Positions 5,277-36,547 of a DNA stretch of 37,247 nt are shown piece after piece. The stretch's first letter is position 1. The number at the start of each line of letters is the position of its first letter. The DNA is taken from the IMG/VR virus record IMGVR_UViG_2526164629_000027. One strand, written 5' to 3'. The notes below the pieces were generated by a model. That model had not been told where the DNA came from, ran no database searches, and saw only the letters and a program-made list of their open reading frames with translations. A program made the translations under genes and the position numbers. This DNA comes from a virus. Taxonomy: Duplodnaviria; Heunggongvirae; Uroviricota; Caudoviricetes.

Positions 5277-5598
5277 GAAACCAGAACATGCACACACAAA
5301 AAAACCGCTTGCCATGTCGCAATCAGTCAGGTTACATTTCCGCTGCACCTCACAAAACGGGTGTCGGGTTTCGCAGCCTGCTGACTACACAAGCGCACAA
5401 CCGCGCCAGCGGTTTTTTTGTGCGTACTGTATTGCCACGTTTTTTTCGCGTCAGAATTATGGCGGGGCGTACGGGGCCGACTTCGGTCGGGCCGGGTTCT
5501 TGTGTAGCCGGTACTGCGAACCTCGTACGTCTCGCCACCCACAGTTTCGCAGCTCTGGATGGTGAGTTTTCACAACTTACTACACAAGGGGCCACACC

Positions 5599-5829
5599 AT
5601 GGCAAACCGCAAACCACACCGCGCTATCGCGGAGCGTCGTCACATCCAGACTGAAATCAACCGCAGACTTTCCCGCGCATCACGCGTCGCGCAAATCATG
5701 CACATCAATATGCTGCATGAGCGCAGCCACGCACTATCAAACATTTATTCCGCCTCTGTTTACAGCTATCTGGCGAATGATCTGCACGAGCTTCAACAGC
5801 TCATCCAGCAGCAAAACAAACACCATTAA
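5599..5829 (+). CDS. Hypothetical small protein
   Basis: 76 aa ORF with AGGGG-type SD; follows a 320-bp structured non-coding stretch. Confidence 0.4.
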   Translation: MANRKPHRAIAERRHIQTEINRRLSRASRVAQIMHINMLHERSHALSNIYSASVYSYLANDLHELQQLIQQQNKHH

Positions 5830-5901
5830 TTCCTGTTCCGGGCCTTTCCTGCACCTTGCGGCGGGAGGCCTTCGCACATCTGTAACAAGAGGATTGCCGC
5901 A

Positions 5902-6267
5902 ATGATTCTCGCCAACGACTTTCTTGAATACCTGCTCAACACAGAACGTGATCTTGCCGCTCGCGTGCGTGATCGTTATGACATGTACCTGAAATCCCTG
6001 CCTGTACCGCAACTCGCTGACGGAAAAATTGTTATTGATGGTCGCTACATGATCGACAGCCACGAGGGAAATTACAGGCTTTACCGCATTGAAGGTGGCA
6101 CCCCGTCCGTTATTGGCATTTACCAGCGCCCATCCTCTGCAATCGTCGATGTGATTGCCGACAGCATCCGCATCACACATCGCCATGCCGACACAGAAGA
6201 CACCGTGCTGGAAATTCAGCGGCTGGCTACCGTCTGCCGCGACACCCTGAATGGCATGACGAAGTAA
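5902..6267 (+). CDS. Hypothetical protein immediately upstream of the replication gene
   Basis: 121 aa ORF with SD AAGAGG; ends 6 nt before gene A. Confidence 0.55.
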   Translation: MILANDFLEYLLNTERDLAARVRDRYDMYLKSLPVPQLADGKIVIDGRYMIDSHEGNYRLYRIEGGTPSVIGIYQRPSSAIVDVIADSIRITHRHADTEDTVLEIQRLATVCRDTLNGMTK

Positions 6268-9066: not shown

Positions 9067-9876
9067 TCAACCTATCTTCTTATGAAGTAAAATTAATTTC
9101 TGTATTAATTTGGAATGAAACATAGATATATCAGAAATTCTTATTTCATTAGGCGAGTCTATATGATTGGAAACTTCTTCCTCCAAGGAGTCACAAATAC
9201 TTTCTAGATTTTCAATATCTGCATTTAATTCTGGAAAACTATTAAACAAATATAATGAATCCCGTAACTCTCCTAGTTTTGGTAAAAGAGTATTACTGAA
9301 TACACTAAGAAATTCCTCTTCTGATAATGCCATGGAGTTTTTAAAATTTTGCACAACATCGAATGCCAACCCATTAATTTTAGGCATAATTACTTCTCTT
9401 ACCCAATACCCTTCATTAATAGCTTCTTTACGTTCTTTTCTATGTTGAACACAAGGAATAACAAAGGATGAAACTAAAGCAAATAAAGAGATGCCAATAG
9501 AAATCCACTCTGGACCATTTTCCGGAACCTTTACAATATTATATATATCATAGGAATTTGGAACATCTTTGAAATAATTAGCAAATAAATCTTTTTTGTT
9601 ATCCCTTGCCAGAGATAACTTATGAAAGGTGTCGTTTGCCTTTTCACAAAACATCAAGCCATCATTCGGGTTTCCGGATAACAAAAACGGTGATGATATA
9701 CCACCAAGTCCTGAATCGGAAATATAAAAAGGCGTGTTTGGATAAAGTGACTCATTACATTCAATGTTTTCTTTGTTGGAAAAATCTGTCACAGAGCAAG
9801 CTGCGGGGAATATAAAAAAAATGACAGACAGCGCTGTCATTTTGATTTGAAAAATATTTTTAAAAGAAGGGAACAT
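9067..9876 (-). CDS. Cargo gene d: bitopic membrane protein (signal/lipoprotein-like N-terminus, central TM helix), unknown function
   Basis: 269 aa; about 30% GC; N-terminal hydrophobic segment ending in Cys (VIFFIFPAAC), central TM (WISIGISLFALVSSFVIPCV), acidic C-terminal domain; overlaps the end of gene c by 17 nt. Confidence 0.6.
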   Translation of the reverse strand: MFPSFKNIFQIKMTALSVIFFIFPAACSVTDFSNKENIECNESLYPNTPFYISDSGLGGISSPFLLSGNPNDGLMFCEKANDTFHKLSLARDNKKDLFANYFKDVPNSYDIYNIVKVPENGPEWISIGISLFALVSSFVIPCVQHRKERKEAINEGYWVREVIMPKINGLAFDVVQNFKNSMALSEEEFLSVFSNTLLPKLGELRDSLYLFNSFPELNADIENLESICDSLEEEVSNHIDSPNEIRISDISMFHSKLIQKLILLHKKIG

Positions 9877-10204
9877 TTTTATGTAAGCCTCTCCTTACAG
9901 CTCTATCTAATTCAGAAAGCATACCTTCTTTATATTCACGACCATCAAGTACAGTGCGACTATAAAATTCGCTAGGCGAAGAAAATTTCGGCAAAACCGT
10001 TTCAAGCATACCTAGAAAGTATGAGCTTGATACAACAATTCCCTTGGGGATCAATAGATATAATCTATCATTACTGGTTGTGCAAAATTTCCCTATATTA
10101 AAGTAATCATAGGCTTGGCGCCCATTAGAACGTCCTGCAAAAAGTTTCTTGTTACTATCTTTTACTAACTTATTGAAATCTATGGTGATGTCAGCCATTT
10201 TCAT
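9860..10204 (-). CDS. Cargo gene c: small protein with a STAS-like (anti-sigma-antagonist-like) Ser motif
   Basis: 114 aa; ATG with SD GAGGA; segment GIVVSSSYFLGML resembles the conserved phospho-Ser region of SpoIIAA/RsbV-type STAS domains (recognised by eye only). Confidence 0.55.
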   Translation of the reverse strand: MKMADITIDFNKLVKDSNKKLFAGRSNGRQAYDYFNIGKFCTTSNDRLYLLIPKGIVVSSSYFLGMLETVLPKFSSPSEFYSRTVLDGREYKEGMLSELDRAVRRGLHKNVPFF

Positions 10205-10214
10205 GTACCTGTCC

Positions 10215-11282
10215 TCAAGTTCGCTGGGTGGCGTTTTCTGGTAGAGGAAAACGAATATTGATCATAACTCCAGGAAATCGAGCATCCTTCATACGCTTAA
10301 GATAGTTGCGATCCGGTTCAGATTCAAGCCCTACATCATTAAAAGGGTAAGTAAAAATGTCACTTTCCTCGTCATTAACCAACCTTTGCTTTAATTTATA
10401 TGATCCATCAAAGTTAATATGAGTACTACCAGATATTAAAGTCATTTTTATCCCACCTTTAATATCTCTTCCCATTTTTTTAAGATTATCATGCATATCT
10501 TGAAATAACTTCAATAATTCAATTGTTCCGGTGCCAGAACTGTCAGTTTCTTTCTCGTTTTTACAACTCACCCGCCCTTGCAAGGCCGCTACTGTTGTTA
10601 ATCCTTCCTTAAACATACCCTTTTTCTTAATATGCTTATTTATGTATGGATTAACTTGTTGACTTAATGAAAAATGATCCTCAGGTAAATTATCAAAAGT
10701 TTCGCTGATAGTTTTCCCAAAATTGAAAACAGCCAACTCACATATGGGGTTTCGTACGTTATTATTAACAAAACCTCTCAAATACCAGCGTGGGCGTTGC
10801 TCTAACCCACAATGCCGCTCCGCATTATCAAGGAGTTCCCCCATGCAGGAAGTTAAATGCTTTTCTGCCTCATGTACAAGTTTTAAATTATGATCATTTA
10901 AGCATTCGTTTATGTATGCGGTAAATTTTTCAGCAGTGACATTTTTTCTGTCATGGGCAAAGGCAGAAGCATTCTCCTTTCCGATACTATCAGCAGAGAA
11001 GATTCGTTTCTTCGGATTCGCTTTTTTCGATGCTTCAGTAGAGTCCAGAACTTTACCTGGTGCAGCATTACTAATCTCTTTTACAAGCCCGACATCCCTG
11101 ATAATTTCAAGATACTGTTCATCTTTAGGGTAGATACCATTAATCTGAATCATCGTATCTTTGAAATTTATATTACTTTGCCTTGCTGCTGTAAGAGCAA
11201 CACCTAATAGACACTCAAGACCAAGACAGTGTTTTTGTTTTCTTGTAATCAAAAATATATGATTTCCATTTACCTCTTGCAA
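10215..11282 (-). CDS. Cargo gene b: GHKL (histidine-kinase-like) ATPase-domain protein
   Basis: 355 aa as listed (TTG start); the first in-frame ATG is at 11153; N-box-like GELLDNAERH (ExxxNAxxH) and Gly-rich DSSGTGTIELL segment; AT-rich. Confidence 0.55.
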   Translation of the reverse strand: MQEVNGNHIFLITRKQKHCLGLECLLGVALTAARQSNINFKDTMIQINGIYPKDEQYLEIIRDVGLVKEISNAAPGKVLDSTEASKKANPKKRIFSADSIGKENASAFAHDRKNVTAEKFTAYINECLNDHNLKLVHEAEKHLTSCMGELLDNAERHCGLEQRPRWYLRGFVNNNVRNPICELAVFNFGKTISETFDNLPEDHFSLSQQVNPYINKHIKKKGMFKEGLTTVAALQGRVSCKNEKETDSSGTGTIELLKLFQDMHDNLKKMGRDIKGGIKMTLISGSTHINFDGSYKLKQRLVNDEESDIFTYPFNDVGLESEPDRNYLKRMKDARFPGVMINIRFPLPENATQRT

Positions 11283-11688
11283 TTAATTTTGTGGCAGCAC
11301 TAATAAATAGCAGAGATTTCTCTGGATTGTCATATAAGTCAAAATATTTAGGTATTAATATCTTCTCTGCGTCACGACGAAGAATTGATGAGTCATACTC
11401 TTTTATAATCGATATATTTTCAATGAACGTAGCGACTTGGTTTTGGACAGGAGTTGTTTCATCGGAAAAACGAAGACTACCATTTTTCTCTTGCGCAGGC
11501 TTTTTTTTCTTAGCTCTCTCAACGCTACGAAGAAATCGCAACCATCCACGTAAAAAGGTTCTTTTAGAATCTTCTTTATTGATTTTTTTCATTTCCAAAT
11601 GTTCCTGCAAAGTTAACGTAGCCCACAAGGCGCTAAGTATACTTTCTGCTATATTTTTTTCACTATACAAATGCACAATAGTGCACAA
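11215..11688 (-). CDS. Cargo gene a: small basic protein, or N-terminal part of gene b if the two are one frameshifted ORF
   Basis: 157 aa from TTG, or 125 aa from the ATG at 11590-11592; Lys-rich; overlaps gene b by 68 nt in the -1 frame across several A/T runs. Confidence 0.4.
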   Translation of the reverse strand: MCTIVHLYSEKNIAESILSALWATLTLQEHLEMKKINKEDSKRTFLRGWLRFLRSVERAKKKKPAQEKNGSLRFSDETTPVQNQVATFIENISIIKEYDSSILRRDAEKILIPKYFDLYDNPEKSLLFISAATKLIARGKWKSYIFDYKKTKTLSWS

Positions 11689-11700
11689 ATTTGCACAATT
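11671..11700. repeat. Three TGCACAA direct repeats at 10-bp phasing at the 5' end of the cargo operon (candidate operator)
   Basis: Plus strand reads aTGCACAAtagTGCACAAattTGCACAAtt; the repeats also create short palindromes (TGCAC-N4-GTGCA on the gene strand). Confidence 0.5.
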
Positions 11701-12063
11701 TTTTTGAACGATTTTTTGCCCTTCCGGCCCGCATGGTGGCTGGATCCGTCAAGGATCCGTGCGTGCACAAAAAAACGCATTTTTTCTGCGCGCAGGTGAC
11801 GGGGGAACAGCCCGCGTTTCAGGGGGGGTAAACAGCATTCCCTGAACGATGTCGCAGAGACACAACAGAATGGCCATATTTCTCACGCTGAGCATGAAAA
11901 AGGCGTGAGGGCTTTTGATTTGATGGGGTGAAAGGTAAGGCCGTCAAAATCGCACTGAGGCAGCGAGAACATACAGTCAACGCGGTGGGATTGCGTAAGA
12001 GTCTGACCGTCGATGGTGGCGATAAACTGGAAGGCGTCGTGAAATTATCTGATTGATACAGGA

Positions 12064-12108
12064 GCTGCTTCGCCGGGGCATAAATTTTTTATGCCCCGGC
12101 GAAGCAGC
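12064..12108. repeat. Perfect 18-bp inverted repeat with 9-nt A/T loop
   Basis: gctgcttcgccggggcat - aaatttttt - atgccccggcgaagcagc; GC-rich stem in an intergenic region between the cargo operon and the next gene. Confidence 0.8.
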
Positions 12109-12199
12109 AGACAAGCGAAGCGCGTCAGTGATGCGGCACCTTGCCGACCACACTTCATAAGTGCAAAATACGAGCAAAGAAATCAATGGAGGCTGTTTT

Positions 12200-12724
12200 A
12201 TGGTCATTAATTACAAGCAGTTACGAGAAAAACGAGAGCAGGTAAAGGAAAGTTTTCGCCGCAATGAAGATCTGACCCCGCTTGTACACCTTGCTCAGGG
12301 AATTGTAGATGCTTATGAAATCTCTCTGGAGCTGCCATCACAGACATGGACTGATAGCGACGGTAATCGCCAGCATTACGTTTCATGCGGACTGGAAACA
12401 ACTGAAGGGTTTCGCAGAATGCCTTTATCTCAGATTCCTGCCTCTACCCCCAAAGCAAGGGGCGGCAATGATGAGCGAAAACTGATTTTCAGCATTGAGA
12501 CAGTGGTTGACGACACACCTGGCGAAGTCGCCTTCGTGCATACTCCTCTTTCGATCGCAATGTATAACGATGAAATACAGGTTCGCGTTAATAATAATAT
12601 CGTGCCACTTAAAGAAGGTAATTCACCATACACCACCGTTTGTGAAGCCATTCAATATTACGTTCTCTCTGAAATTGATAATCTCAAGCCTGACGGCACC
12701 CAGAAAATGGTTCAACTCTGGTAA
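12200..12724 (+). CDS. Hypothetical protein (orphan cargo gene between the palindrome and the portal gene)
   Basis: 174 aa from the ATG at 12200 with SD GGAGG 8 nt upstream; convergent with the portal gene; no recognisable motif. Confidence 0.55.
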   Translation: MVINYKQLREKREQVKESFRRNEDLTPLVHLAQGIVDAYEISLELPSQTWTDSDGNRQHYVSCGLETTEGFRRMPLSQIPASTPKARGGNDERKLIFSIETVVDDTPGEVAFVHTPLSIAMYNDEIQVRVNNNIVPLKEGNSPYTTVCEAIQYYVLSEIDNLKPDGTQKMVQLW

Positions 12725-24051: not shown

Positions 24052-26409
24052 ATGGCCGTGGGCGACGGTGGCGGCGCGTTGCCCACACCAGACAGTAAGC
24101 AGACCCGTCTGGTGCATGAGGTGTGGCGACACACTGTTAATCGCGTCATCCTGGACGCAACACATCAGAACCGCATTATTGCGGAGCTGGTTATTCCTCC
24201 AGAAACGGGCGGATTCTGGATCCGGGAAATTGGTGTGTTTGATGAGCACGGCGATTTAATCGCGGTGGGCAATACTGCCGAAAGTTACAAGCCAGCCGTT
24301 GCCGAAGGGTCCGGACGTGCACAAACATTTCGCACCATTCTGACCGTATCCAGCACTGCCACTGTGGCGCTTACCGTGGATAACACCATGGTGATGGCCA
24401 CAGTGGATTACGTGGATAACAAACTGAAAGAGCATGAACAGTCACGATGTCACCCGGATGCCTCGCTGACCGCAAAAGGCTTTGTTCAACTCAGTAGCGC
24501 CACTAACAGCGATTCTGAAACGCTGGCTGCAACGCCGAAAGCGGTTAAGGTCGCGTATGATCTTGCTAACGGAAAATATACAGCGCAGGATGCCACAACA
24601 GCGCGAAAAGGCCTTGTCCAGCTTAGTAGTGCAACCAACAGTACATCTGAAACGCTGGCGGCAACGCCAAAAGCAGTTAAAGCAGCCAATGACAATGCGA
24701 ATAGCAGGGTGCCATCTAACCGAAAAGTTAACGGAAAAGCACTGACTGCGGATATAACATTAACGCCGAAAGATATTGGTACTTTAAATTCAGTAACGAT
24801 GTCTTTCTCTGGCGGGGCTGGGTGGTTCAAACTGGCTACGGTTACCATGCCACAAGCGAGTTCCATCGTTTACATCGCATTGATTGGTGGCGCTGGTTAC
24901 AACGTCGGTTCCCCACATCAGGCAGGCATTTCAGAACTGGTTCTACGAGCAGGCAATGGAAACCCCAAAGGAATTACCGGGGCTTTGTGGAAGCGTACAG
25001 CCGTCGGATTAACGAATTTCGCCTGGATCAACACATCCGGCGATACATATGATATTTACGTTGAGATTGGCAATTATGCGACGAGTGTAAATATCCATTG
25101 GGATTGTACTGCAAATGCGTCAGTTTCTGTTTATACCTCGCCAACATATTCAGCGAGTAAGCCTTCCAGCGTTACCTATGGTGTTGTTTATACGATGTAT
25201 AGCTCACATCAGAAACCTACACCATCAGATATTGGAGCACTGCCAACAACCGGAGGAACAGTTTCAGGTCCGTTGTCTGTTACAGGTGGATTAACTGGTT
25301 CATTGAATGGTAATGCAAGTACAGCCACGAAATTGCAGACGGCAAGATCTATCGGTGGAGTTGTTTTCGACGGTTCTGCAAATATTAACCTTCCAGGTGT
25401 AAACACTACGGGTAATCAGAACACCACTGGTAATGCTGCAACTGCTACAAAACTTCAGACTGCAAGAAAAATATCCGGTGTTCCATTTGATGGTTCTACT
25501 GATATCACTTTAACCGCCGCGCATGTGGCTGCTTTTGCCAGAAGGGCAACGGATACATATGCCGATGCGGATGGTGGCGTTCCCTGGAATGCCGAATCAG
25601 GCGCTTACAATGTCACCCGCTCTGGCGACACCTATATTCTGGTTAACTTCTATACCGGAGTCGGAAGTTGCCGGACCTTGCAGATGAAGGCACATTACAG
25701 AAATGGAGGTCTGTTCTACCGTTCCTCAAGAGATGGCTATGGTTTTGAGGAAGACTGGGCAGAAGTTTATACCTCGAAAAATCTTCCACCAGAAAGCTAC
25801 CCAGTCGGCGCACCAATCCCGTGGCCATCAGATACCGTTCCGTCTGGTTATGCCCTGATGCAGGGGCAGACTTTTGACAAATCTGCATACCCGAAACTTG
25901 CAGTCGCTTATCCGTCAGGCGTGATCCCTGATATGCGTGGCTGGACTATCAAGGGCAAACCTGCCAGTGGTCGTGCCGTATTGTCTCAGGAACAGGACGG
26001 CATTAAATCGCACACCCACAGCGCCAGCGCATCCAGTACTGATTTGGGGACGAAAACCACATCGTCGTTTGATTACGGTACTAAAACGACCAGTTCATTT
26101 GATTACGGCACAAAAACCACAAATAGCGCAGGAGCTCATTCACACAATATACCTGTTGGTCACACTGGCGCGGGGAATGGTGTATCAGCCGGTTATAACG
26201 CTGCGTTAGGTACTGGTACCACGTCGAGCGCAGGAGGGCATGCTCACAATGTACATATCGGTGCCCATAACCACACTATCGGCATTGGTGCTCATGCCCA
26301 TTCTGTCATTATTGGTCCCCACGGACACACCATCACCGTTAATGCTACGGGGAACGCAGAAAACACCGTAAAAAACATCGCATTTAACTATATTGTGAGG
26401 CTTGCATAA
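24052..26409 (+). CDS. H: Tail fibre protein (P2 gpH family); intact ORF from an internal Met, see frameshift fragment upstream
   Basis: 785 aa; N-terminal region MAVGDGGG...IAELVIPPE...AESYKPA matches the conserved P2 H domain; duplicated [21 protein letters not shown] motif; C-terminal tandem repeats and His-rich HxH repeats. Confidence 0.85.
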
Positions 26410-26804
26410 TGACATTCAGAATGAGTGAACAATCACGGACCATAAAAATTTATAATCTACTGACCGGAACCAATGAGTTTATTGGTGAAGGTGATGCATA
26501 CATTCCACCTCATACAGGTCTGCCTGCAAACAGTACCGATATTGCCCCGCCAGATATTCCGGCTGGCTTCGTGGCCGTTTTCAACAGTGATGAGGCATCG
26601 TGGCATCTCGTTGAAGACCATCGGGGTAAAACTGTTTATGACGTGGCATCAGGGGACTCGTTATTTATTTCTGAACTCGGTCCATTACCGGAAAATGTTA
26701 CCTGGTTGTCGCCGTATGGAGAGTATCAGAAGTGGAACGGCACATCCTGGGTGAAAGATGCAGAAGCAGAAAAACTGTTTCGGATAAGGGAGGCGGAAGA
26801 ATAA
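26409..26804 (+). CDS. G: Tail fibre assembly chaperone, N-terminal part (P2 gpG/Tfa family)
   Basis: 131 aa; position immediately after H; its conserved C-terminal Tfa region is in another frame. Confidence 0.7.
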
Positions 26805-26986
26805 AAAACAGCCTGATGCAGGTAGCCAGCGAGCATATTGCGCCACTTCAGGATGCCGTAGATTTGGATATTGCAACGGAGGAAGAGGCATCGTTACTGG
26901 CTGCATGGAAGACATACCGGGTATTGTTGAATCGTGTTAATACAGCGGTAGCAGCGGATGTTGAGTGGCCAGTCGCCCCACAATAA
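26732..26986 (+). CDS. Tail fibre assembly chaperone, C-terminal conserved region in a different frame (frameshifted continuation of G)
   Basis: Translation ...[61 protein letters not shown] matches conserved Tfa C-termini; no credible independent start. Confidence 0.5.
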
Positions 26987-26991
26987 AGAGA

Positions 26992-27019
26992 AAAAGCCAT
27001 CGATTGAAATATAGATGGC
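26992..27019. terminator. Hairpin terminator between tail-fibre genes and the acetyltransferase gene
   Basis: aagccatc-N12-gatggctt stem flanked by A-run and T-rich sequence. Confidence 0.5.
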
Positions 27020-27029
27020 TTTATGTACT

Positions 27030-27635
27030 CTATTTATACAATACAACACCGCTCTTTTTAGTTATATATGTGCAGTTCGATGGTATATCTTTATTTATAA
27101 AAGACATTGCACCTATTTTTACATTATCCCCAATTTTACGTGATAATCCAATGATGCAACAATTAGCTCCGATATCAACGTTACTACCAATTTTTACTCT
27201 TGAACCAGGCATGTCACCATCTATCTGTCCAATGGTAGTATTCTGTCGTAACACCAGATTTTCACCAGCATCAACAGCAAAATGAACAACAATTCCAGCA
27301 TGATGGGGAATTGTTAACCCTTTTCCAATATTTGCGCCCAATCCAATTTCACAACCAAATTTGTTAATTATTTTACTGTTCAACTTTTTGGCTGCTTTCT
27401 TATGTAATTTATTACCATTAATATACATTTCGTTAGCCAACCGCCACCAGAAAAGGAAATTCCGGTTACGCTGTTTTTTCTCTCTTAAAAGCCTCCAGAT
27501 ATCCATACGTTTCCGCCGAATTACTTCATATTTCCAGAAGTTTTTTAAATTAGTAGAGTTCCCAAATAAAACAAAGTGAATTGCCATTAAGTAAGACAGC
27601 ACGATAATCTCCTTAATTATTATTTCAGACCACAC
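27030..27635 (-). CDS. Hexapeptide-repeat acyl/acetyltransferase (left-handed beta-helix family), cargo gene
   Basis: 201 aa (GTG start; alternative ATG at 27587); hexapeptide-like repeats (IGANCCIIGLSRKIGDNVKIG, IGQIDGDMPGSRVKIGSNVDIG); markedly AT-rich. Confidence 0.75.
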   Translation of the reverse strand: MWSEIIIKEIIVLSYLMAIHFVLFGNSTNLKNFWKYEVIRRKRMDIWRLLREKKQRNRNFLFWWRLANEMYINGNKLHKKAAKKLNSKIINKFGCEIGLGANIGKGLTIPHHAGIVVHFAVDAGENLVLRQNTTIGQIDGDMPGSRVKIGSNVDIGANCCIIGLSRKIGDNVKIGAMSFINKDIPSNCTYITKKSGVVLYK

Positions 27636-27758
27636 ATGTTATAAGGTTAAGAGATTATAAAATCCTGTTATTTGTTATTCAAAAACAATTTTCTGAGAAG
27701 GACATACAACAGCAAGTCGCCAGTCACCTTCATCAGGAAATTGGCGACATACGTTAAA

Positions 27759-28253
27759 TCAGAGCAGCCCCTTAACTGAGCTGGCCGCGCTATTAAGGGA
27801 TGATGTCACCTTATCTTTGAAGCCGGACAACATATCGCTGAACGATGAGGATTGCAGGCGCTCCCGCAAATCCTCATCACAGCGTTCAAGAGTCAGTGAA
27901 AATTCTATCTTTTTCGCTTTACCGTAGCGATCAAACTCGGAACGGGTCGTATTCGTTTCGGTCAGGACATACATGCCGTAAATCTGCCCGACGCCATCAA
28001 TCAGAGGCCAGGGCCGTCCTGTATACGCCTGCGTGGTCAGCAGAGACAGCGACACTTCGCCACCTGTAATTTCAGGATAAAGCACACCAGAAAGAACGAT
28101 GCGGTCATCACCTGCACCGATATACTGCCAGCTTGCTGAACGGTTAACGCGTTCATTTTTCACATGCCGCCAGCTTTTATTTTGCTGTAACTGCTGATGC
28201 GGCAATGTGCGCAGCTCAAAAACAAACATGCCGTAGATCATCATCATGGCCAT
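27759..28253 (-). CDS. U: Tail protein U
   Basis: 164 aa; immediately downstream of the tape-measure gene on the same strand. Confidence 0.75.
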   Translation of the reverse strand: MAMMMIYGMFVFELRTLPHQQLQQNKSWRHVKNERVNRSASWQYIGAGDDRIVLSGVLYPEITGGEVSLSLLTTQAYTGRPWPLIDGVGQIYGMYVLTETNTTRSEFDRYGKAKKIEFSLTLERCDEDLRERLQSSSFSDMLSGFKDKVTSSLNSAASSVKGLL

Positions 28254-28259
28254 GACTCC

Positions 28260-31103
28260 TCAATCTTTATCGCAAAAACTGCCACGCCCGGCACGGGCGC
28301 GCCGTTCCATTTCTGCCCTGACCATTTCACCGACCAGTTTCGCCAGTTCGCGGGGATTCTGCGTAACAACGTTATGCAGATGAACATGAATTTCACCGCC
28401 AAATCCGGAGACAACAGGCTCCCGGTTACGGGAAGTTGCAGGAACTGATGCCACTGGCGATCGTATGGCCTCCGCCACCGGGCGGGAGCTGGCCGCAACA
28501 ACAGGGACCAGCGCCGGAGGCAGAGGAGTCGGGACCACGGGTGTGATGTTGATTGCGGAAGCAGGCTTACTGACCTGCGCAATCTTCCGCTCCTGCCACT
28601 CCCCACGAACGGCAAGTGCGCGGGGCAGGTTCTTAAAGACAATATCGCCGGGGCCAATACGTTTTTTCGTCTCATCAACCAGCTTACCTGTGTTATCAGC
28701 AATTTTGCTGAGTCTGCGTAGCGTACCGGTATTGCTGTCTGTGAGCGGTTTGTTGTCTTTGGGTTTATCGCCTCCGGTGCCATTGCCATTTTCCGCAGAC
28801 TTCGGCGGATTGATTTTCGCAATGTCTCCCTGAAACAGAGCAACCTTGTCCTGAAGAATGGCCGCACGCTGTGCGTCTTCGATTTTCTTGCGCGCCCTTT
28901 CCGCTTCATCCGGAAGCACACCGAGCTTTTCAAGTATCCACGCCAGCGTATCCAGCAACATTTTTGCAGGTGTAAGAACAAGTTGTAACGCACCGCCAAG
29001 AACGTTACCGAATATCTCGCCAGCACTGGTACATTTATCCAGCGTTTCCTTGCTGGACTCCATCGGTGACAGCAGCGATTTAAACCAGTTAAACACCTGG
29101 CTTATCCCGCTTCCGATTGCGTCAAAAACAGGACCAAACCGTTCAAAGGTTTCGCGCAACGGGGTCAGCCTTTCCATAATCCCGCTGAACACCCCGGCAA
29201 AAAATGCCCTGATGGGATCCCAGTATTTCCAGATAAGAACGGCAGCTCCGGCAAGCGCAGCCACGATAAGACCAACCGGACTGAACAACGCCCCGATAGC
29301 GCCTCCCAGTAAAGAAACGGAACCCGTCACCATTCCCCATAGTGCTGGCAGAACCCTGACAGCATTCATTGATCCGGTCAGGAGGGAAAAACCAAGACGC
29401 AGTTTTGCCAGCGGGCCAGCAAGCACACCAATAGCCAGCGACAACGAGCCAACCGTTGCAGTCATTGCCAGCAGTGCACCGCCTGCAATCAGTAGCTGGC
29501 GCGTCAGTGCGGGATGGGCCTGCGCCAGCGCCGTCACCTTTGATACCACTCGCGTGAGCCACTGCGTGACAGAACGCAGCGGACCGTCAATCAGATCTGC
29601 AATGCGGATGCGCAACCCTTCCCATGCACTGCTGAGTGATTTCAGATCGCCGTCAAGGTTGTTGGCCATAACCTTTGCCGTGCGTTCAGCCTCACCGCGC
29701 GCGCCTTCAAGTTCTTTTCTCAGTTTGGGTAAGGAGCCGTTACCTGCCGCATCAACGAGGGCCATAAATGATGTGAAAGCCTCTTCTCCTGCAATGTCCT
29801 TAAAGAACGATACCCGGTCAACTTCCCCGTATTTGCGGGTAGCTTTATAAAGGTCAGCCAGCACATCCTCCATCGGGCGCATTTTGCCCCCGGCATCCGA
29901 GACAGACACGCCAAGCTCTTTCAGCGCCTCTGCTGCCGCCTTTGGCGGTGATGCCAGACGAGCCAGGCTGGCACGCATTGCCGTACCAGCATCACTCCCC
30001 CTGATACCCATATTCGCCAGCACGCCCGCCATCGCTGCGGCCTGCTCCAGCGATATTCCCAGCTTACCCGCCACCGGACCTGCATATTTCATGGTTTCGC
30101 CCAGCGCGCGAAGGTCAGTGTTAGTACGGGTAAACGCTGCTGTAAGCGTGTCACCGACCCGGTCCATCTGGTCAGCGGAGAGGCCGAACTGCGTCAGGAT
30201 ATTTGAGCCAATATCCGCCGTCTCGCCAAGGTCCATACCGCCAGCCGTTGCCATGCTCAGCACGCCCGGAAGCGCAGCCTGAATGGCCTGCGGTGTGAAG
30301 CCAGCCATTGCAAGAAATGCCTGCCCACTGGCGGCATCGCCTGCGGTGAACTGCGTTTCAGAGCCAAGTTTTAACGCCTGCTCACGCAGCGCCTTAAACT
30401 GCGGGCTGTTTTTGTCGATTCGCGTCAGTGCCTGAACGCGGGACATCTCTTTCCCGAACCCGATCGCAGGCTGCAAAAAACGCCCGGCAGCATAGCCGCC
30501 CGCCGCTGCCGCACCAATTGCCAGCGCACCACCTGTTTTCAGTTTTTCCGCTGTTTCCTGCGCGCGCGAATACCGCTCACGCGCCCGCGTTACACGCGCA
30601 AGCGCCTGCCGTTCGCGTTCAAGCTGGTTGTTGTATTGTTCGGTGCGTCTGATGGCCTGCTGGATGGTGTTATCGCTGCCTGTCAGGGAAATGCCGTGGC
30701 GTTTCAGCTCTCCGCCAAGCTCCCGCATTTTCTGAATTTCCCGTGTGCGCGATTCATTCAGGCGTTCAAGCCGGGTGCTTAACTGCTGCATCAGCTTTTG
30801 TTGTTTTTCGCTGAGCACTGTACCCGTGCGTTGTAACTGATTAAGGGCGTTAAGCTGGCGTCGTGCTTTCACGATGCCCGCATCCGCTTTACTGACAGCG
30901 TCGCGGGCGCGCTCAAATGATCGCGCCTGACGCTCGAGATTTTTGATCGCCCCCTGCGTTCGCTGGATGGAGTCACCAAACTGCCCCATCAGGCGGCGGG
31001 CGTTTTCGGCAGGCCGGGTCAGCCTGTCAACGGCGCTGAAAGCGACCCGGATATCAAGAGTCTTCATTGTCTGCATTCCCGCTGCGAAGTGCCGCCCGCT
31101 CAC
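28260..31103 (-). CDS. T: Tail tape measure protein (P2 gpT family)
   Basis: 947 aa; long helical/coiled N-terminal region, Gly/Ala-rich hydrophobic middle; true start may be the ATG at 31076 or 31067. Confidence 0.9.
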   Translation of the reverse strand: MSGRHFAAGMQTMKTLDIRVAFSAVDRLTRPAENARRLMGQFGDSIQRTQGAIKNLERQARSFERARDAVSKADAGIVKARRQLNALNQLQRTGTVLSEKQQKLMQQLSTRLERLNESRTREIQKMRELGGELKRHGISLTGSDNTIQQAIRRTEQYNNQLERERQALARVTRARERYSRAQETAEKLKTGGALAIGAAAAGGYAAGRFLQPAIGFGKEMSRVQALTRIDKNSPQFKALREQALKLGSETQFTAGDAASGQAFLAMAGFTPQAIQAALPGVLSMATAGGMDLGETADIGSNILTQFGLSADQMDRVGDTLTAAFTRTNTDLRALGETMKYAGPVAGKLGISLEQAAAMAGVLANMGIRGSDAGTAMRASLARLASPPKAAAEALKELGVSVSDAGGKMRPMEDVLADLYKATRKYGEVDRVSFFKDIAGEEAFTSFMALVDAAGNGSLPKLRKELEGARGEAERTAKVMANNLDGDLKSLSSAWEGLRIRIADLIDGPLRSVTQWLTRVVSKVTALAQAHPALTRQLLIAGGALLAMTATVGSLSLAIGVLAGPLAKLRLGFSLLTGSMNAVRVLPALWGMVTGSVSLLGGAIGALFSPVGLIVAALAGAAVLIWKYWDPIRAFFAGVFSGIMERLTPLRETFERFGPVFDAIGSGISQVFNWFKSLLSPMESSKETLDKCTSAGEIFGNVLGGALQLVLTPAKMLLDTLAWILEKLGVLPDEAERARKKIEDAQRAAILQDKVALFQGDIAKINPPKSAENGNGTGGDKPKDNKPLTDSNTGTLRRLSKIADNTGKLVDETKKRIGPGDIVFKNLPRALAVRGEWQERKIAQVSKPASAINITPVVPTPLPPALVPVVAASSRPVAEAIRSPVASVPATSRNREPVVSGFGGEIHVHLHNVVTQNPRELAKLVGEMVRAEMERRARAGRGSFCDKD

Positions 31104-31217
31104 GCCAGCTAACCACTTCGCCGGGCGTCATCATGAAGATTTCGGCGGGCGACCAGTTAAAAATGGCGGCAATATCCGCCACAAAGTCTTCTATGTACTC
31201 AAAGCACACAACCGTGA

Positions 31218-31583
31218 TCAGGCTTCCGTCGCCTGTTCGTTCTTCCCGCCAGAGTCCGCACCGCTCAAAAAATTTACGGCAACCACACATAACTGAATAA
31301 AGTCACGGGATGCCATTTTTTTGATCGTCACTTCATCCAGTCGCGGTGATGTCACGCGTGACAGCAGCGTAAACATGGATTCCGCTTTCAGATTCAGCAC
31401 ATCAGACAGCGACAAATCTCGCAGAGATCCAGCCTGCTCAATAGCCCCGGTGATCTCCACATACGTGATTTTTTCGCCGCCTCGCTCAATTGGTTGGGTA
31501 AGTTTTACGCCACGCTCACTGGTTTCTTTCACAGTGTCAGTAACTACCGTGTTTTCGGTATCGATGTTTTTCGTCTCTTTCAT
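31218..31583 (-). CDS. E: Tail assembly chaperone E; E+E' extension to 31054 by programmed -1 frameshift
   Basis: 121 aa with SD AGGAG; contains the slippery heptamer T TTT TTG in frame (VNFL); the -1 frame continues as ...FFERCGLWREERTG... to a stop at 31054, overlapping the T start. Confidence 0.8.
   Translation of the reverse strand: MKETKNIDTENTVVTDTVKETSERGVKLTQPIERGGEKITYVEITGAIEQAGSLRDLSLSDVLNLKAESMFTLLSRVTSPRLDEVTIKKMASRDFIQLCVVAVNFLSGADSGGKNEQATEA
31266..31272 (-). promoter_or_regulatory. Programmed -1 ribosomal frameshift slippery site (TTTTTTG) for E/E'
   Basis: Heptamer read as AA-T TTT TTG in the E frame; the same heptamer is used by P2 E/E'. Confidence 0.75.
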
Positions 31584-31637
31584 CAGGAAACTCCTTTCAG
31601 TCAGAGGCGACGCACTGCGCCGCCTGCATATTACTTA

Positions 31638-32150
31638 TCAACCAAGCCCAAGCGCGGAACGGATACGGTCAGGCACAATGTCCTTGCCGTCCTTCCGGTA
31701 AATGAAGTTCAGCAGGTCAATCTCCCACAACGGGCGATCGTTAACACTCAGCTTGTAGTAGGTGTTTTTAATGGCGTAAGTGTGTGATGTGGCTTCGCCC
31801 TGTTTGGCTTCCCCCATATCAATTTCCGTCACACGTCCGCGCATCTCGATTTCATACAGATCGCTTTCTGCATCGGTGTAGTATTCACCCGCAAAACGCA
31901 GCAGCGTGCCGTCAATCGTGCCGCCATATTTAAGGAACAGCGCACGAACAGCTCCCCCCATAACAAAACTCGCATCAAGCGCGGAGTCGTCCAGACCGAG
32001 ATCAATACTTACCGCCCCCATCATGCCACCACCACGATAGCTGTCGGTTTTGCGCGTCAGTTTAGGCAGGGTGACGGACGTCACCTTACCCACTTCGTTT
32101 TCACCATCCACAAACAGCGTAAAAAAGCGAAGATGTTTTGGTACAGCCAT
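31638..32150 (-). CDS. FII: Tail tube protein (P2 gpFII family)
   Basis: 170 aa; follows the sheath gene with start/stop overlap. Confidence 0.85.
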   Translation of the reverse strand: MAVPKHLRFFTLFVDGENEVGKVTSVTLPKLTRKTDSYRGGGMMGAVSIDLGLDDSALDASFVMGGAVRALFLKYGGTIDGTLLRFAGEYYTDAESDLYEIEMRGRVTEIDMGEAKQGEATSHTYAIKNTYYKLSVNDRPLWEIDLLNFIYRKDGKDIVPDRIRSALGLG

Positions 32151-33334
32151 CAGACACCTCCCAGCACCGCAAATGCGGGACCAAAGAATTCATCAGTAAA
32201 CGACTGGTAAAGCTCCATGTCTTCCAGCGGGGGAACAGGCGTATATTTGTAGCGAATACGCACACGCCCCTGACGTAAATTCGTGGTGCCGTTATCCACC
32301 ACGTCATACCAGCACGACGCCCCAATCAGTTTCCCGGCAGTAACCAGTGAATCCAGTTTTGCCCTGATGGCACTGATAACATCTTTCACGTTCGCAGGCG
32401 TCAGTGGACTGTCGATGGTTTCAAACTGCGCTTCCGCAATTGAATCAGCCAGCACCTGTGCGGTTCGGGTATACACCTCAAAGATGTAGGCGTTCGTTTC
32501 CGGTGTGCGGTTGCCCCAGAAGCGGAACCCGTTGCGACGAATAATGGTCGTGATTTCTTTGTTGTTGAGGCTGTTGGCATCGCTGTCTTCGGCCTGCAAC
32601 GACCAGAACACATGCCTGGACATCCCCAGCACATTTTTAACCGGAACGTTGGACAGTGATTTGTGCCATCCCTGCTCATGGTCAATGTACGCACGAAGGC
32701 CGCACGCATAGGCAGGCGCGGGGAACGTTTCGTTTTTGCCACTTTTCGGGTTGTAGGCGATGAAGTCCGGCCATAAGAGCATCACCTCACGTTCGTTGAA
32801 TTTCTGGCGGTAGGTAATCACCTCAGCCATCGTGTTACAGCCGTGACATGAGGCATACACAAACGCGCGCAGTTTACCCGCAATCACGCACAGGGATTTT
32901 GTCACCGCCTCCGTGTCCAGCTCCGGCGCGGCCAGAATACGCGGACGGTATCCGATGCTTTCATCCTGCTCTGCAACAAGCAGCGCATACATCCCCGTAT
33001 AGCTGCCGTCAGATTCAGAACCACCGATAACCAGTTGATCCTGCGTCTTTCCGTCTTCTTCTTTGTGTTCAGCCACGCGAACGACGATCACCTTTGTGCT
33101 CACCTGGTCTGCGATGGCCTTAAGCGCACGATAAAGCGTCCCCGTTGTCCCGCATTTTCCCAGCACGTCATTGACGCGGGTCAGCAGTGTGGGCTTGTTC
33201 AGCGGGAACAGCTTCGCGTCCGCATCATCCGCCGTTGCCACGATACCGATAACGCTGGAATCAACATCGTTAATCGCTGTTACCAGGTCGGTATTTTCCG
33301 TAACACGGGCACCATGAAAACGAGTTTCACTCAT
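32150..33334 (-). CDS. FI: Contractile tail sheath protein (P2 gpFI family)
   Basis: 394 aa; size and position match P2 FI. Confidence 0.9.
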   Translation of the reverse strand: MSETRFHGARVTENTDLVTAINDVDSSVIGIVATADDADAKLFPLNKPTLLTRVNDVLGKCGTTGTLYRALKAIADQVSTKVIVVRVAEHKEEDGKTQDQLVIGGSESDGSYTGMYALLVAEQDESIGYRPRILAAPELDTEAVTKSLCVIAGKLRAFVYASCHGCNTMAEVITYRQKFNEREVMLLWPDFIAYNPKSGKNETFPAPAYACGLRAYIDHEQGWHKSLSNVPVKNVLGMSRHVFWSLQAEDSDANSLNNKEITTIIRRNGFRFWGNRTPETNAYIFEVYTRTAQVLADSIAEAQFETIDSPLTPANVKDVISAIRAKLDSLVTAGKLIGASCWYDVVDNGTTNLRQGRVRIRYKYTPVPPLEDMELYQSFTDEFFGPAFAVLGGV

Positions 33335-33491
33335 AGCTTTAGCCCCTTGTATCCGTTAAATGATTCGGCAACAATCATCACCCACCACGCGCGTAATCTC
33401 ACCCCTGTGCCGTTCTCCCGATCCGGCGACAACAAAAAGCAGTAACCCCCTCCGCACGCACATGCGACCATGCCGCACAGGGAGGGAACAG

Positions 33492-34601
33492 ATGACCGAT
33501 ACCACCATGCAATTGCTCAGTCAGGGCACAGACCCCGTGAAAATGCCGGATTTTGATATTCTCGCGGAGGGTAAAACGCTGTCAGGCGTGGCAGAGCGCC
33601 TGATGAGCCTGTCACTGACCGACAACCGGGGATTTGACGCGGACCAGCTCACCATCACGCTGGATGATGCGGATGGTCAGTTGCAGCTACCGCCACGGGG
33701 CACGCGCCTGACGGTTCTCATTGGCTGGAAAGGAGAACCGCTGACAGAAAAAGGCACTTACATTGTTGATGAAATCGCTCACGAAGGACCGCCGGACAGG
33801 CTGACTGTTTCAGCCAGAAGCGCAGATTTTCGGGATGAATTTAACGTTAAACGTGAGGTGTCCTGGCATGATGTGACCGTTGAGCGTGTGGTATCCGCCA
33901 TCGCTCATCGGTATGGTCTGAAACCGCAAATCAGCGAAATGCTGATGGATATCGAAATCGACCACGCCGACCAGACCGAAGAAAGCGACATGTCCTTCCT
34001 TACGCGCATGGCGGAAATGCTGGGCGCAATCACCACGGTAAAAAGCGGTAATCTGTTATTCATTATGCCAGGCGGTGGCGTGAACGCACAGGGCCAGCCG
34101 TTGCCATCGTTCGCCATCACGCGCAGCAGTGGCGATCGCCATCAGTTCCGCATTGCTGACCGCGAAGCGTATACGGGGGTACGCGCTTACTGGCTTGATC
34201 TTAATTACGGGAAAAAGAAAAAAGTCAGCGTGAAACACCGCAAACCGCCAAAACCCAAAAAGGAGAAAAGCAGCAGCCGTGAAGGTGATTATATGGAAGG
34301 CGCGGAAGGCAATGTGTTTGTGTTACGCAAGACTTATCAGAACGAGCAGGCAGCAAGACGCGCAGCGGCGGCAAAGTGGCAGCAGCTACAACGCGGAGCC
34401 GCATCATTCTCCATCACGCTGGCATGTGGTCGTGCAGAACTCTACCCCGAAATGCATGGCACGGTAACAGGATTTAAAAGCGAGATTGATAATCAGGACT
34501 GGATTATTGCAAAAGCCGAGCACACCATCGATAACAGCGGCTTTACCACGCAGCTTGAGCTTGAGGCAAAAATCCCGGAATGGATAGCAGAAACAGAGTG
34601 A
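33492..34601 (+). CDS. D: Tail protein D (late control gene D family)
   Basis: 369 aa from the ATG at 33492 with SD GGAGGG; the listed ORF begins 132 nt upstream at a non-ATG start. Confidence 0.8.
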   Translation: MTDTTMQLLSQGTDPVKMPDFDILAEGKTLSGVAERLMSLSLTDNRGFDADQLTITLDDADGQLQLPPRGTRLTVLIGWKGEPLTEKGTYIVDEIAHEGPPDRLTVSARSADFRDEFNVKREVSWHDVTVERVVSAIAHRYGLKPQISEMLMDIEIDHADQTEESDMSFLTRMAEMLGAITTVKSGNLLFIMPGGGVNAQGQPLPSFAITRSSGDRHQFRIADREAYTGVRAYWLDLNYGKKKKVSVKHRKPPKPKKEKSSSREGDYMEGAEGNVFVLRKTYQNEQAARRAAAAKWQQLQRGAASFSITLACGRAELYPEMHGTVTGFKSEIDNQDWIIAKAEHTIDNSGFTTQLELEAKIPEWIAETE

Positions 34602-35424: not shown

Positions 35425-35706
35425 TTACTCAGCATTCTCCTGCTTCCATTGCCGGATCATTTCATCGGTAACATCACCCTCATAACATACCACGTCATAC
35501 CCTCCATTACGGCTATATGCACTGCGTCCACCACATCTACTACCATTCCTTGCATGATTATAAGGACACGCACAATTGCCTGGATAAGATTCAATGGATT
35601 CTTTAATTATTTCTTTTTTGATCTGAGCATCAGACTTTCCTGTTGCTGCATATCCGCTAAAAGATACTAAACAAAGGCAGATTGCCATTAATAAACCACA
35701 TCGCAT
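35425..35706 (-). CDS. Hypothetical secreted Cys-rich small protein
   Basis: About 93 aa from MRCGLLMAICLCLVSFSGYAA (signal peptide) with several Cys (NCACPYNH...RCGG...VVCYEG); the listed ORF extends further upstream. Confidence 0.5.
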   Translation of the reverse strand: MRCGLLMAICLCLVSFSGYAATGKSDAQIKKEIIKESIESYPGNCACPYNHARNGSRCGGRSAYSRNGGYDVVCYEGDVTDEMIRQWKQENAE

Positions 35707-36175
35707 ACCGATACACTCTATTACTAACCAATCATAGCCCACATCATAAAATCGAGATGAGGAGTACAATACCTTTAACAAGAAGGTGTCATAACGATAA
35801 TATGTCGTGCAATTCATCAAAAAAAAGATCTATATCAAAGAGATAGAACTCTTATCAGTGCTTCAGACATCGGCATTCGAGGCAGCAGAAAAACAGTAAA
35901 TCTGACGAATTTGCCTTTTCCCAAGATGTTGTCAGATTAAAAAGATAGATTAGCGCAGGTACCTGTTGGTGGATTGCAGGAGGAAAAATGAAGTCGAGTG
36001 GAAAAATCCCAGAAAAATTTTTGTTTAACAGAGGTCCTGGTTCACTATGCGAAATACGGAGGAGCTGCAGAAGAATTCTGCTTCATCCTTAGAGTTTAAA
36101 CAGCACGTGCACTACCATTGTTTCTGCATATCGCCACACCATCGCCACTCAACCGCCATTGCACAAAATACAAAT

Positions 36176-36244: not shown

Positions 36245-36331
36245 TGGTACCCGGAGCGGGACTTGAACCCGCACAGCGCGAACGCCGAGGGATTTTAAAT
36301 CCCTTGTGTCTACCGATTCCACCATCCGGGC
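36245..36331 (-). tRNA. leuZ: tRNA-Leu (anticodon UAA)
   Basis: 87-nt minus-strand sequence gcccggatggtggaatcggtagacacaagggatttaaaatccc...gggtacca with long variable arm and CCA end. Confidence 0.9.
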
Positions 36332-36343
36332 TCGGGAAGAAAG

Positions 36344-36417
36344 TGGAGGCGCGTTCCGGAGTCGAACCGGACTAGACGGATTTGCAATCCGCTACATAAC
36401 CGCTTTGTTAACGCGCC
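36344..36417 (-). tRNA. cysT: tRNA-Cys (anticodon GCA)
   Basis: 74-nt minus-strand sequence ggcgcgttaacaaagcggttatgtagcggattgcaaatccg...cgcctcca. Confidence 0.9.
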
Positions 36418-36471
36418 AAATTCTTCAGGCCTTTCAGCCAGACATCCGCTTGACGCCGATGTCTTTTAAAC

Positions 36472-36547
<76 letters not shown>

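Follow-up and report, generated by a model that had tools for sequence, protein, structure and literature searches.

A single gene on the minus strand of a P2-like E. coli prophage, named serine acetyltransferase in the databases, is read here, with a probability of roughly one half, as an O-acetyltransferase of the LPS core (or of another lipid-linked glycan) that acts as a lysogenic-conversion gene. The window analysed was the whole stretch of viral DNA, 37,247 nucleotides in length (IMG/VR virus record IMGVR_UViG_2526164629_000027). AT-rich acyltransferase morons in the fun(Z)/neaT slot and prophage-encoded surface acetylation are well known, and the gene would add a further example to an established pattern, in which temperate phages have envelope-modifying genes next to those for the tail fibre. 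The link of this acetyltransferase family to LPS-core clusters appears to be new. The analysis also corrects a systematic annotation error and offers a single-gene hypothesis.

The cargo cassette and its position in the prophage

The features of the locus are listed below with their coordinates, strand and the evidence used.

26409..26986, plus strand: tail-fibre assembly gene tfa (P2 G / TfaR-like), left flank (ORFs, annotated twin)
26987..27750, no strand assigned: exchangeable cargo cassette (homology breaks against sister prophages, GC)
26993..27022, no strand assigned: hairpin between the convergent tfa and acetyltransferase genes (folding)
27030..27602, minus strand: predicted 190-aa left-handed beta-helix (LbH) O-acetyltransferase CDS (ORF, profile, alignment, model, PGAP relatives, dN/dS)
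27603..27635, minus strand: 5' extension of the 201-aa ORF, probably 5' UTR, with AAGGAG at 27610-27615 (sequence)
27654..27682, minus strand: sigma-70-like promoter TTGAAT-17 nt-TATAAT (consensus match)
27716..27748, minus strand: hairpin just past the stop codon of gpU, where the inverted F (tail) operon ends (folding)
27759..28253, minus strand: tail protein gpU, right flank, last gene of the inverted FI-FII-E-T-U block (ORFs, relatives)

The ORF list of the window showed a GTG-initiated ORF at 27030..27635 on the minus strand, encoding 201 aa. The true start is probably the GTG at 27602, because an AAGGAG Shine-Dalgarno sequence precedes it by 6 nt, and the product would then have 190 aa. 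PGAP gives the same 190-aa protein, from a 573-nt gene model, in relatives that include near-identical prophages. The N-terminal residues of the 190-aa form were conserved across 72 homologues and had high confidence in the AlphaFold model, so the shorter start annotated in phage JL22 seems unlikely for this gene. The GTG at 27635 has no Shine-Dalgarno sequence, and the transcript from the predicted promoter would begin only about 12 nt upstream of it. The gene noted at 27030-27635 in the preliminary description is real, and the 5' end of the 201-aa ORF overshoots the likely start.

The GC content was 34.6% for the acetyltransferase gene and 34.1% for the cassette, against 50.8% for the window, 47.4% for tfa and 50.1% for gpU. 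An equally low GC content was found in only 2.2% of the 573-nt sliding windows across the whole stretch, and those of still lower GC fell in the other cargo locus of the prophage, at 8.7-11.3 kb. H-NS often silences AT-rich foreign genes. The predicted promoter matched the consensus at 10 of 12 positions, by sequence match only. The P2 late-promoter dyad TGT-N12-ACA was not found upstream of the gene, and the window contained 5 exact matches to it, below the chance expectation of 8.8. A search of Rfam gave no RNA family inside the cassette itself.

Folding showed a hairpin on each side of the gene. The one at 26993-27022 had a free energy of -16.6 kcal/mol on the minus strand (z -3.7) and is followed by UUUUUCUCUUUAUU. 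Because this U-run comes next on the minus strand, the hairpin is predicted to be the intrinsic terminator of the acetyltransferase gene, possibly a bidirectional one, and it was kept in the copies of P1-like phages. The hairpin at 27716-27748 had a free energy of -22 kcal/mol (z -4.3), with no clear U-run after it.

On the left, homology to sister prophages with other cargo broke off at the tfa stop codon; the right-hand break fell at about 27740-27755, shortly before the stop codon of gpU. In the window, tfa is split by a 1-nt deletion in an A-run near 26803. An annotated twin prophage in E. coli O26:H11 11368 has the order V-W-J-I-H-tfa on the plus strand, the acetyltransferase on the minus strand, U-T-E'-E-FII-FI on the minus strand and D on the plus strand. 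The twin prophage and the ORFs of the window showed that the FI-to-U block is inverted relative to P2 and that D is not, and in a related record ogr lies downstream of D on the plus strand.

In the P2 reference record, G is followed on the opposite strand by fun(Z), which is a non-essential gene of lysogenic conversion. Wiles et al. (2013) defined "moron position 2" between G and FI, and in CFT073 this position holds neaT, an acyltransferase gene of 30% GC that runs in the reverse direction from a promoter of its own (PMC3573123). The acetyltransferase gene has the same layout, lying on the minus strand between tfa (plus) and gpU (minus), with the inversion of the F block putting U rather than FI against the slot. 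In sister prophages the slot was occupied by a family-9 glycosyltransferase (GT9, the heptosyltransferase family), a version found in 48 genomes, or by a Cin-type invertase with alternative fibre tips. The variable content, the own promoter and terminator and the atypical GC of 34.6% are traits of cargo in moron position 2. The gene is a phage moron of the classical kind: AT-rich, foreign in origin, alone in its cassette and equipped with a predicted promoter and terminator of its own.

The preliminary description had seen an AT-rich, non-structural gene, bracketed by hairpins and set next to the fibre assembly gene at the P2 Z/fun variable locus. This picture was borne out by the GC values, by the two hairpins, by the P2 record together with PMC3573123 and the differing cargo of the sister prophages, and by the finding of an acyltransferase as cargo in an accessory slot.

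Fold, catalytic residues and family of the protein

Analysis on Pfam gave a Hexapep match of 23.6 bits, below the gathering score of 27 (E 3.8e-5), and nine hexads of the [LIV]G type were found in residues 86-168. The AlphaFold monomer model had a pLDDT of 96 and contained five N-terminal helices (residues 2-82) and a left-handed beta-helix (residues 84 to about 180). Foldseek matched the model to LbH acetyltransferases with a probability of 1.0, its best matches being serine acetyltransferases at a TM-score of about 0.7, and the best solved-structure matches by phmmer against the PDB were CysE enzymes. The viral fold search in BFVD gave weak generic LbH matches only. With 31 K+R against 12 D+E the protein is strongly basic, and its N-terminal helix is hydrophobic. 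The Pfam search showed no match to PF01757, the acyltransferase-3 membrane domain, and the model consists of a soluble helical domain and the LbH. The product is predicted to be a soluble, probably trimeric LbH O-acetyltransferase.

The top NCBIfam models were EpsC, CysE and WcaB, in that order, and all were matched far under their cut-offs. The EpsC-type EPS serine acetyltransferase model NF041874 gave 75.2 bits against a cut-off of 150, the cysE model TIGR01172 gave 61.5 bits against 210.65 and PRK11132 36.7 against 397, and the WcaB models TIGR04016 and NF007564 gave 53-54 bits against 195-196. A full-length match was obtained to PHROG 2154, a family of unknown function (E 1.6e-87; residues 24-201 of the 201-aa ORF, profile positions 3-181 of 185). 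The family profile was 36% identical to WcaB over 104 columns (E 1e-23) and 27% identical to CysE (E 9e-18), and by these alignments it is closer to the polysaccharide O-acetyltransferase WcaB than to CysE.

Alignment to CysE mapped His158 and Asp143 of that enzyme to His100 and Glu85. His100 was conserved in at least 90% of the 72 family members, and position 85 was Asp or Glu in all 24 displayed rows of the 72-sequence alignment, so a putative catalytic pair, Glu85/His100, is retained. The serine-binding side of the CysE site was different. The alignment covered only residues 112-236 of CysE, and the protein has no SAT N-terminal domain and thereby no counterpart of the Asp92 region. Pro99 stands in place of Asp157, His193 meets a gap, and family members differ at the position of Arg192. 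In the E. coli and H. influenzae SAT structures, the serine/cysteine-binding residues are Asp92, Asp157, Arg192 and His193 (E. coli numbering). The C-terminal Ile tail that binds CysK was also absent, the protein ending in ...VVLYK.

These results bear on the reading of the gene as a true serine O-acetyltransferase, an auxiliary metabolic gene that would raise O-acetylserine/cysteine supply or alter CysB signalling for phage or host. The PGAP name "serine (O-)acetyltransferase" and the CysE enzymes at the head of the solved-structure matches speak for it. The TIGR01172 score, the missing SAT N-domain, the replaced or unconserved binding residues and the lack of the CysK-binding tail speak against it and make it very improbable. 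The alignments and profiles do not support the database name "serine acetyltransferase", because the CysE cut-off is missed, the serine-binding residues are lost and the profile lies nearer to WcaB. We strongly infer a sugar O-acetyltransferase activity.

The hexapeptide-repeat, left-handed beta-helix acyltransferase proposed at the outset was thus recovered by NCBIfam, phmmer against the PDB, AlphaFold and Foldseek, with Pfam Hexapep below threshold. The HMM and structure comparison suggested for assigning a subfamily was carried out, and by sequence the protein groups as a CysE/WcaB-clade O-acetyltransferase in a subfamily of its own. This subfamily is small, with 74 clusters at E <= 1e-30 among 1.84 billion representatives. 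Literature searches on the protein accessions, on IncI backbone genes, on anti-phage serine acetyltransferase and on prophage or superinfection hexapeptide acetyltransferase returned nothing relevant.

Relatives, distribution and proposed function

Three homologues were located in LPS-core clusters. In Leminorella grimontii the acetyltransferase is the last gene of the waa operon (WaaP, GT4, GT8, WaaY, an ORF, acetyltransferase), with WaaL convergent. In Pseudomonas sp. two WaaP-family kinases lie upstream, followed by an opposite-strand ORF and then a GT2 gene directly before the acetyltransferase. The order in Halopseudomonas was HldE, MsbA, one ORF and the acetyltransferase, and hldE-msbA is the beginning of the Pseudomonas core cluster (PMC8005017). 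The core-cluster homologues were 43-50% identical to the protein with E 1e-40 to 1e-48, against 1e-15 for WcaB. A Xenorhabdus prophage has the homologue paired with a gene of GT25, an LPS-core family, which comes 58 bp after it; the pair lies between the integrase and the tail fibre.

A neighbour census of 14 species-level loci showed that the commonest Pfam family was the Kdo/WaaP LPS kinase (3 loci), with several families at 2 loci each, including EptA/B with Sulfatase. A core-cluster location was found in only 3 of the 14 loci, and some others had unrelated neighbours (autotransporter, Crp/Usp, sulfate permease). The core-cluster context holds for the Leminorella, Pseudomonas and Halopseudomonas homologues, the window gene itself being on a prophage. 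From these neighbourhoods we take the LPS core as the best-supported candidate acceptor. Since the copies on mobile elements are only 43-50% identical to the core-cluster copies, the acceptor may differ between them.

An unlikely though real possibility is that the enzyme acetylates a different Und-P-built envelope polysaccharide (colanic acid, O-antigen units, ECA or capsule) at the cytoplasmic face, which would still be lysogenic conversion. A prophage-encoded LbH enzyme, NeuO of CUS-3, acetylates the K1 capsule. WcaB was the closest characterised relative of the LbH domain, the top NCBIfam match was the EPS-associated EpsC model, and prophage-borne acetyltransferases are suspected modifiers of the Klebsiella capsule (PMC13123978). 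The scores, however, were far under the WcaB (54 against 196 bits) and EpsC (75 against 150 bits) cut-offs, and none of the family members examined was in a wzx/wzy-type cluster, against the three in core clusters. The gene is also solitary and occurs in hosts of many O-types (O26, O103, O111, O157, O104). That it is found in Pseudomonas, Xenorhabdus and Orbus as well speaks for an acceptor that is conserved.

Outside the core clusters, close and mid-range relatives were almost always solitary genes on mobile elements. One was found at the end of an HP1/P2-like prophage beside hok/gef and one on a Pseudomonas plasmid, and another, on an E. coli plasmid, adjoined type IV pilus genes with a Pfam content like that of the EPEC bfp cluster. 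Relatives adjoined an integrase in Salmonella, with VapBC-like genes also near, and in Proteus, and a Pantoea relative lay in an island near a Wadjet JetD gene. On I-complex conjugative plasmids a fixed backbone order was found, namely rep, toxin-antitoxin, acetyltransferase and ProQ/FinO (4 of the 4 sampled with an I-type mating apparatus), and an IncFIB plasmid had the same gene neighbourhood.

Some of these neighbours would suit an intracellular defence or competition gene that leaves the surface as it is and instead acetylates small molecules, nucleotide-sugars or components of an invading phage or plasmid. The hok/gef, plasmid type II toxin-antitoxin, Wadjet JetD and VapBC-like genes near relatives fit such a role, and so does fun(Z), the P2 occupant of the same slot, which blocks T5. 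Against it, the gene is single, with no sensor or effector partner, NCBIfam gave no match to CatB- or Vat-type xenobiotic acetyltransferases, and the chromosomal LPS-core operon contexts are hard to square with a dedicated defence role. Identity with a known defence system was also rejected. No PADLOC-DB 2.0 family matched at E <= 0.1, and neither the gene nor any acetyltransferase appeared in the supplementary tables of the P2/P4 hotspot study, which concerns the A-Q locus and not the acetyltransferase slot. A defence role of this kind is quite improbable.

The preliminary description had named two candidate roles for the gene. Acetylation of LPS or surface polysaccharide was backed by the relatives in waa and core clusters, by the GT25 pairing in Xenorhabdus and by GT9 as alternative cargo. 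Small-molecule modification in defence found no support, with no PADLOC match, no partner gene and no match to an antibiotic-acetylating LbH family. Superinfection exclusion, named with the first role, would be one possible benefit.

Of 5,426 complete E. coli genomes, 510 had the cassette, and STEC strains (O157:H7, O26, O103, O111) were numerous among them; the reading frame was intact in about 500 genomes. Comparison with a 91%-identical P1-like copy gave a dN/dS of 0.18. The gene is under purifying selection and is selectively maintained. The cassette recurs in P1-like phage-plasmids, where it is more than 95% identical and is accompanied by the fibre tip, tfa and the terminator. Differences between the P1-like and P2-like copies were confined to the 5' third of the gene and the promoter, and the 3' two-thirds were shared at 95% identity or more. 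Phage JL22 has the gene in its fibre region, a short way downstream of cin and flanked by two convergent fibre-assembly genes, a location which by analogy with P1 may be the invertible C segment.

The tip, tfa, the terminator and the 3' two-thirds of the gene are at least 95% alike in P2-like and P1-like phages, and this recombination-prone linkage could have spread the gene as a functionless passenger of recombination in the adjoining tail-fibre genes. The dN/dS value, the conserved catalytic residues and the intact frame in about 500 genomes, across diverse mobile elements and in chromosomal operons, make this reading extremely improbable.

In a small sample, the P2-like and P1-like phages that carry the acetyltransferase had a 90-95% identical fibre tip, which the GT9 and invertase prophages did not have. 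A strict coupling of the gene to one fibre tip was rejected on the larger sample, in which tip and gene occurred together in only 202 genomes, against 510 with the gene. The O157:H7 copies of the gene have another tip, and the tip was found in thousands of genomes that do not have the gene. Since the gene is not tied to one fibre-tip type, a strict logic by which the phage modifies its own receptor is weakened.

In the preferred reading, LPS-core acetylation, the gene would be expressed in lysogens and its product would use acetyl-CoA as donor, His100 acting as the general base and Glu85 as the acidic residue paired with it. A core-sugar hydroxyl of nascent lipid A-core would be acetylated before MsbA flips the molecule; another lipid-linked envelope glycan is the less likely acceptor. 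At that stage the core would be within reach of a soluble LbH enzyme that depends on acetyl-CoA, and the basic charge and hydrophobic first helix of the protein count in favour of this reading. The exported LPS would gain an extra acetyl group, and lysogens would display a modified core, which is lysogenic conversion. The standard core structures of E. coli (R1-R4 and K-12) are not known to contain an O-acetyl group, which counts against this reading. A plausible pay-off, drawn by analogy, is that other phages, conjugative pili or host factors would recognise the LPS core differently. This could be receptor masking against P1/P2-type phages or I-pili, or a changed host recognition like that of neaT.

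If LPS-core acetylation holds, the "serine acetyltransferase" of hundreds of pathogenic E. coli genomes would be a surface-remodelling factor, adding an acetyl group to LPS in lysogens of the O157, O26, O103, O111 and O104 types. Core-dependent phage sensitivity, the ability to act as an IncI-type recipient and perhaps serum or immune recognition could shift, and the family would be a candidate for the unidentified Pseudomonas core O-acetyltransferases (PMC8005017).

A wider and more tentative reading is that this compact family is the long-missing cytoplasmic LPS-core O-acetyltransferase, captured repeatedly by core-docking P2-like and P1-like phages and by I-complex plasmids as a shared receptor-masking or entry-exclusion device; we consider it possible and rather doubtful as a whole. 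PilV thin-pilus adhesins of I-complex plasmids bind the LPS core. If this wider reading were true, a non-canonical acetylated core would be encoded by about 9% of complete E. coli genomes, STEC being over-represented among them, and phage typing, phage therapy, conjugation and immune recognition would be affected.

Comparison with known systems

The nearest parallel in genomic position is NeaT of CFT073, which also occupies the slot after G, in reverse orientation to the flanking tail genes and as a single gene with its own promoter. Like the gene described here, neaT is strongly AT-rich and "unameliorated" (30% GC), encodes a predicted envelope-altering acyltransferase and has homologues across unrelated phages (PMC3573123). 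The two differ in that NeaT is a membrane acyltransferase-3 protein (PF01757), whereas the protein here is a predicted soluble LbH enzyme, and in that the right-hand neighbour here is gpU, the F operon being inverted, and not FI. Infection phenotypes are known for NeaT. P2 fun(Z) has the same position and strand relative to G and is likewise non-essential lysogenic-conversion cargo, but it encodes an unrelated 528-aa protein (1,587-nt CDS) with a phenotype of T5 block and FUdR sensitivity.

WcaB, the E. coli colanic-acid O-acetyltransferase, is the closest characterised relative of the LbH domain and likewise a short CysE-like enzyme. It acts on Und-PP-linked sugar intermediates in the cytoplasm, and the product names of its pathway show acetylated Und-PP-linked intermediates. 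These are intermediates of colanic acid, not of the core. The protein here differs from WcaB in its longer and different N-terminal domain, in the location of its gene in a prophage, outside the wca cluster, and in the motifs FWWRLA and IRQNTTIG, which are specific to the acetyltransferase family and absent from WcaB. With CysE the protein shares the fold and the catalytic His/acid pair; it differs in lacking the SAT N-domain, the serine-binding Asp157 and His193 and the CysK-binding tail, and in scoring far below the model cut-off.

Among prophage-encoded acetylases, NeuO of CUS-3 in E. coli K1 is a soluble LbH enzyme that is encoded next to a tail gene and carries a phase-variable heptanucleotide tract. 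The sequence search of the PDB at E <= 0.01 did not bring up NeuO, and a phase-variable tandem repeat of the NeuO kind was not found in the acetyltransferase gene. Oac of Sf6 is an O-antigen acetylase and a membrane acyltransferase-3 protein. GtrC is the O-antigen acetylase of P22-like phages (PMC7067206) and differs from the protein here in being a membrane acyltransferase-3 protein as well. What NeuO, Oac and GtrC would have in common with the acetyltransferase of the window is prophage-encoded O-acetylation of a surface glycan as lysogenic conversion.

Cargo slot between convergent operons

The FI-FII-E-E'-T-U tail block (27759-33334) was inverted relative to phage P2, while the P2 orientation was kept by D (33360-34601) and, in the related prophage record L002, by ogr as well. 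With the block inverted, the F operon runs towards the V-to-G operon, and the two meet at the cargo slot. Two sister prophages carried a 392-aa family-9 glycosyltransferase (GT9) in the same slot (L008 3704-4882; L009 3744-4922). This protein belongs to the heptosyltransferase family (PHROG 36326) and is probably another LPS-core modifier; 48 complete E. coli genomes carry it.

Fibre-assembly gene beside the cassette

The tail-fibre assembly gene tfa (26409-26986) lacked one nucleotide of an A-run near 26803, which split it into two ORFs of 131 and 84 aa; at this point the window reads GGAAG-AATAAAAAAC and the O26 and P1-like copies read GGAAGAAACAAAAAAC. Relatives carried an unbroken tfa of 192 aa. 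The missing nucleotide reflects a sequencing error or else a lesion that would be expected to cripple assembly of the fibre. A full-length match (184 bits) to the Rfam family IS009 (RF02111) was also recorded at 26752-26949 (+), wholly inside tfa, at the 3' end of its coding sequence, and adjoining the cassette; this "sRNA" family may merely represent conserved tfa sequence.

Other loci of the window

Further features located in the window were as follows:
5345-5419 (+), isrK, Rfam match
5455-5542 (+), C4 antisense RNA, Rfam match
9067-12724, second P2 cargo locus (A-Q locus), bounded by replication gene A and portal Q, with five ORFs
35425-35820 (-), small ORF of 131 aa, between the prophage right end and the tRNA cluster
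36245-36547 (-), cluster of tRNA-Leu(taa), tRNA-Cys and tRNA-Gly, at the right end

The isrK and C4 matches both overlapped an ORF (5288-5905) with Ash/repressor-like matches, and are P1/P4-type immunity RNAs within a P2-like prophage. The A-Q locus is the one that Rousset et al. 2022 described as an anti-phage hotspot. Its ORFs encode 269, 114, 355 and 157 aa (-) and 187 aa (+), and its GC content fell as low as 30%. None of the five matched Pfam, NCBIfam or PADLOC, and the only two PHROG matches among them were to families of unknown function; the locus is a candidate uncharacterised defence system. The small 131-aa ORF, which lies in a region of low GC, matched PHROG 27544, a family of unknown function; a weak match to a moron family named "membrane associated protein" was also recorded. 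The tRNA cluster, just past the D gene and ogr region, probably marks the integration neighbourhood of the prophage.

Distribution in plasmids and phage-plasmids

Homologues of the acetyltransferase (52-55% identical) were found in four I-complex conjugative plasmids (L025, L116, L117 and L118) of the IncK2/Z, IncI-gamma/K1 and IncI1/B/O types. The gene held a fixed backbone position there, in the order rep, type II toxin-antitoxin, acetyltransferase, ProQ/FinO. In PLSDB, 492 plasmid records had a match.

The cassette itself was present in two P1-like phage-plasmids:
L030 (phage JL22), 5097-5573
L029 (pTX376-2), 5041-5613

Compared with the window, the fibre tip, tfa, the terminator and the 3' two-thirds of the acetyltransferase gene were at least 95% identical, while the 5' end of the gene and the promoter differed. 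In these phage-plasmids the cassette was flanked by both convergent fibre-assembly genes immediately downstream of cin, a site that, by analogy with P1, would be the invertible C segment.
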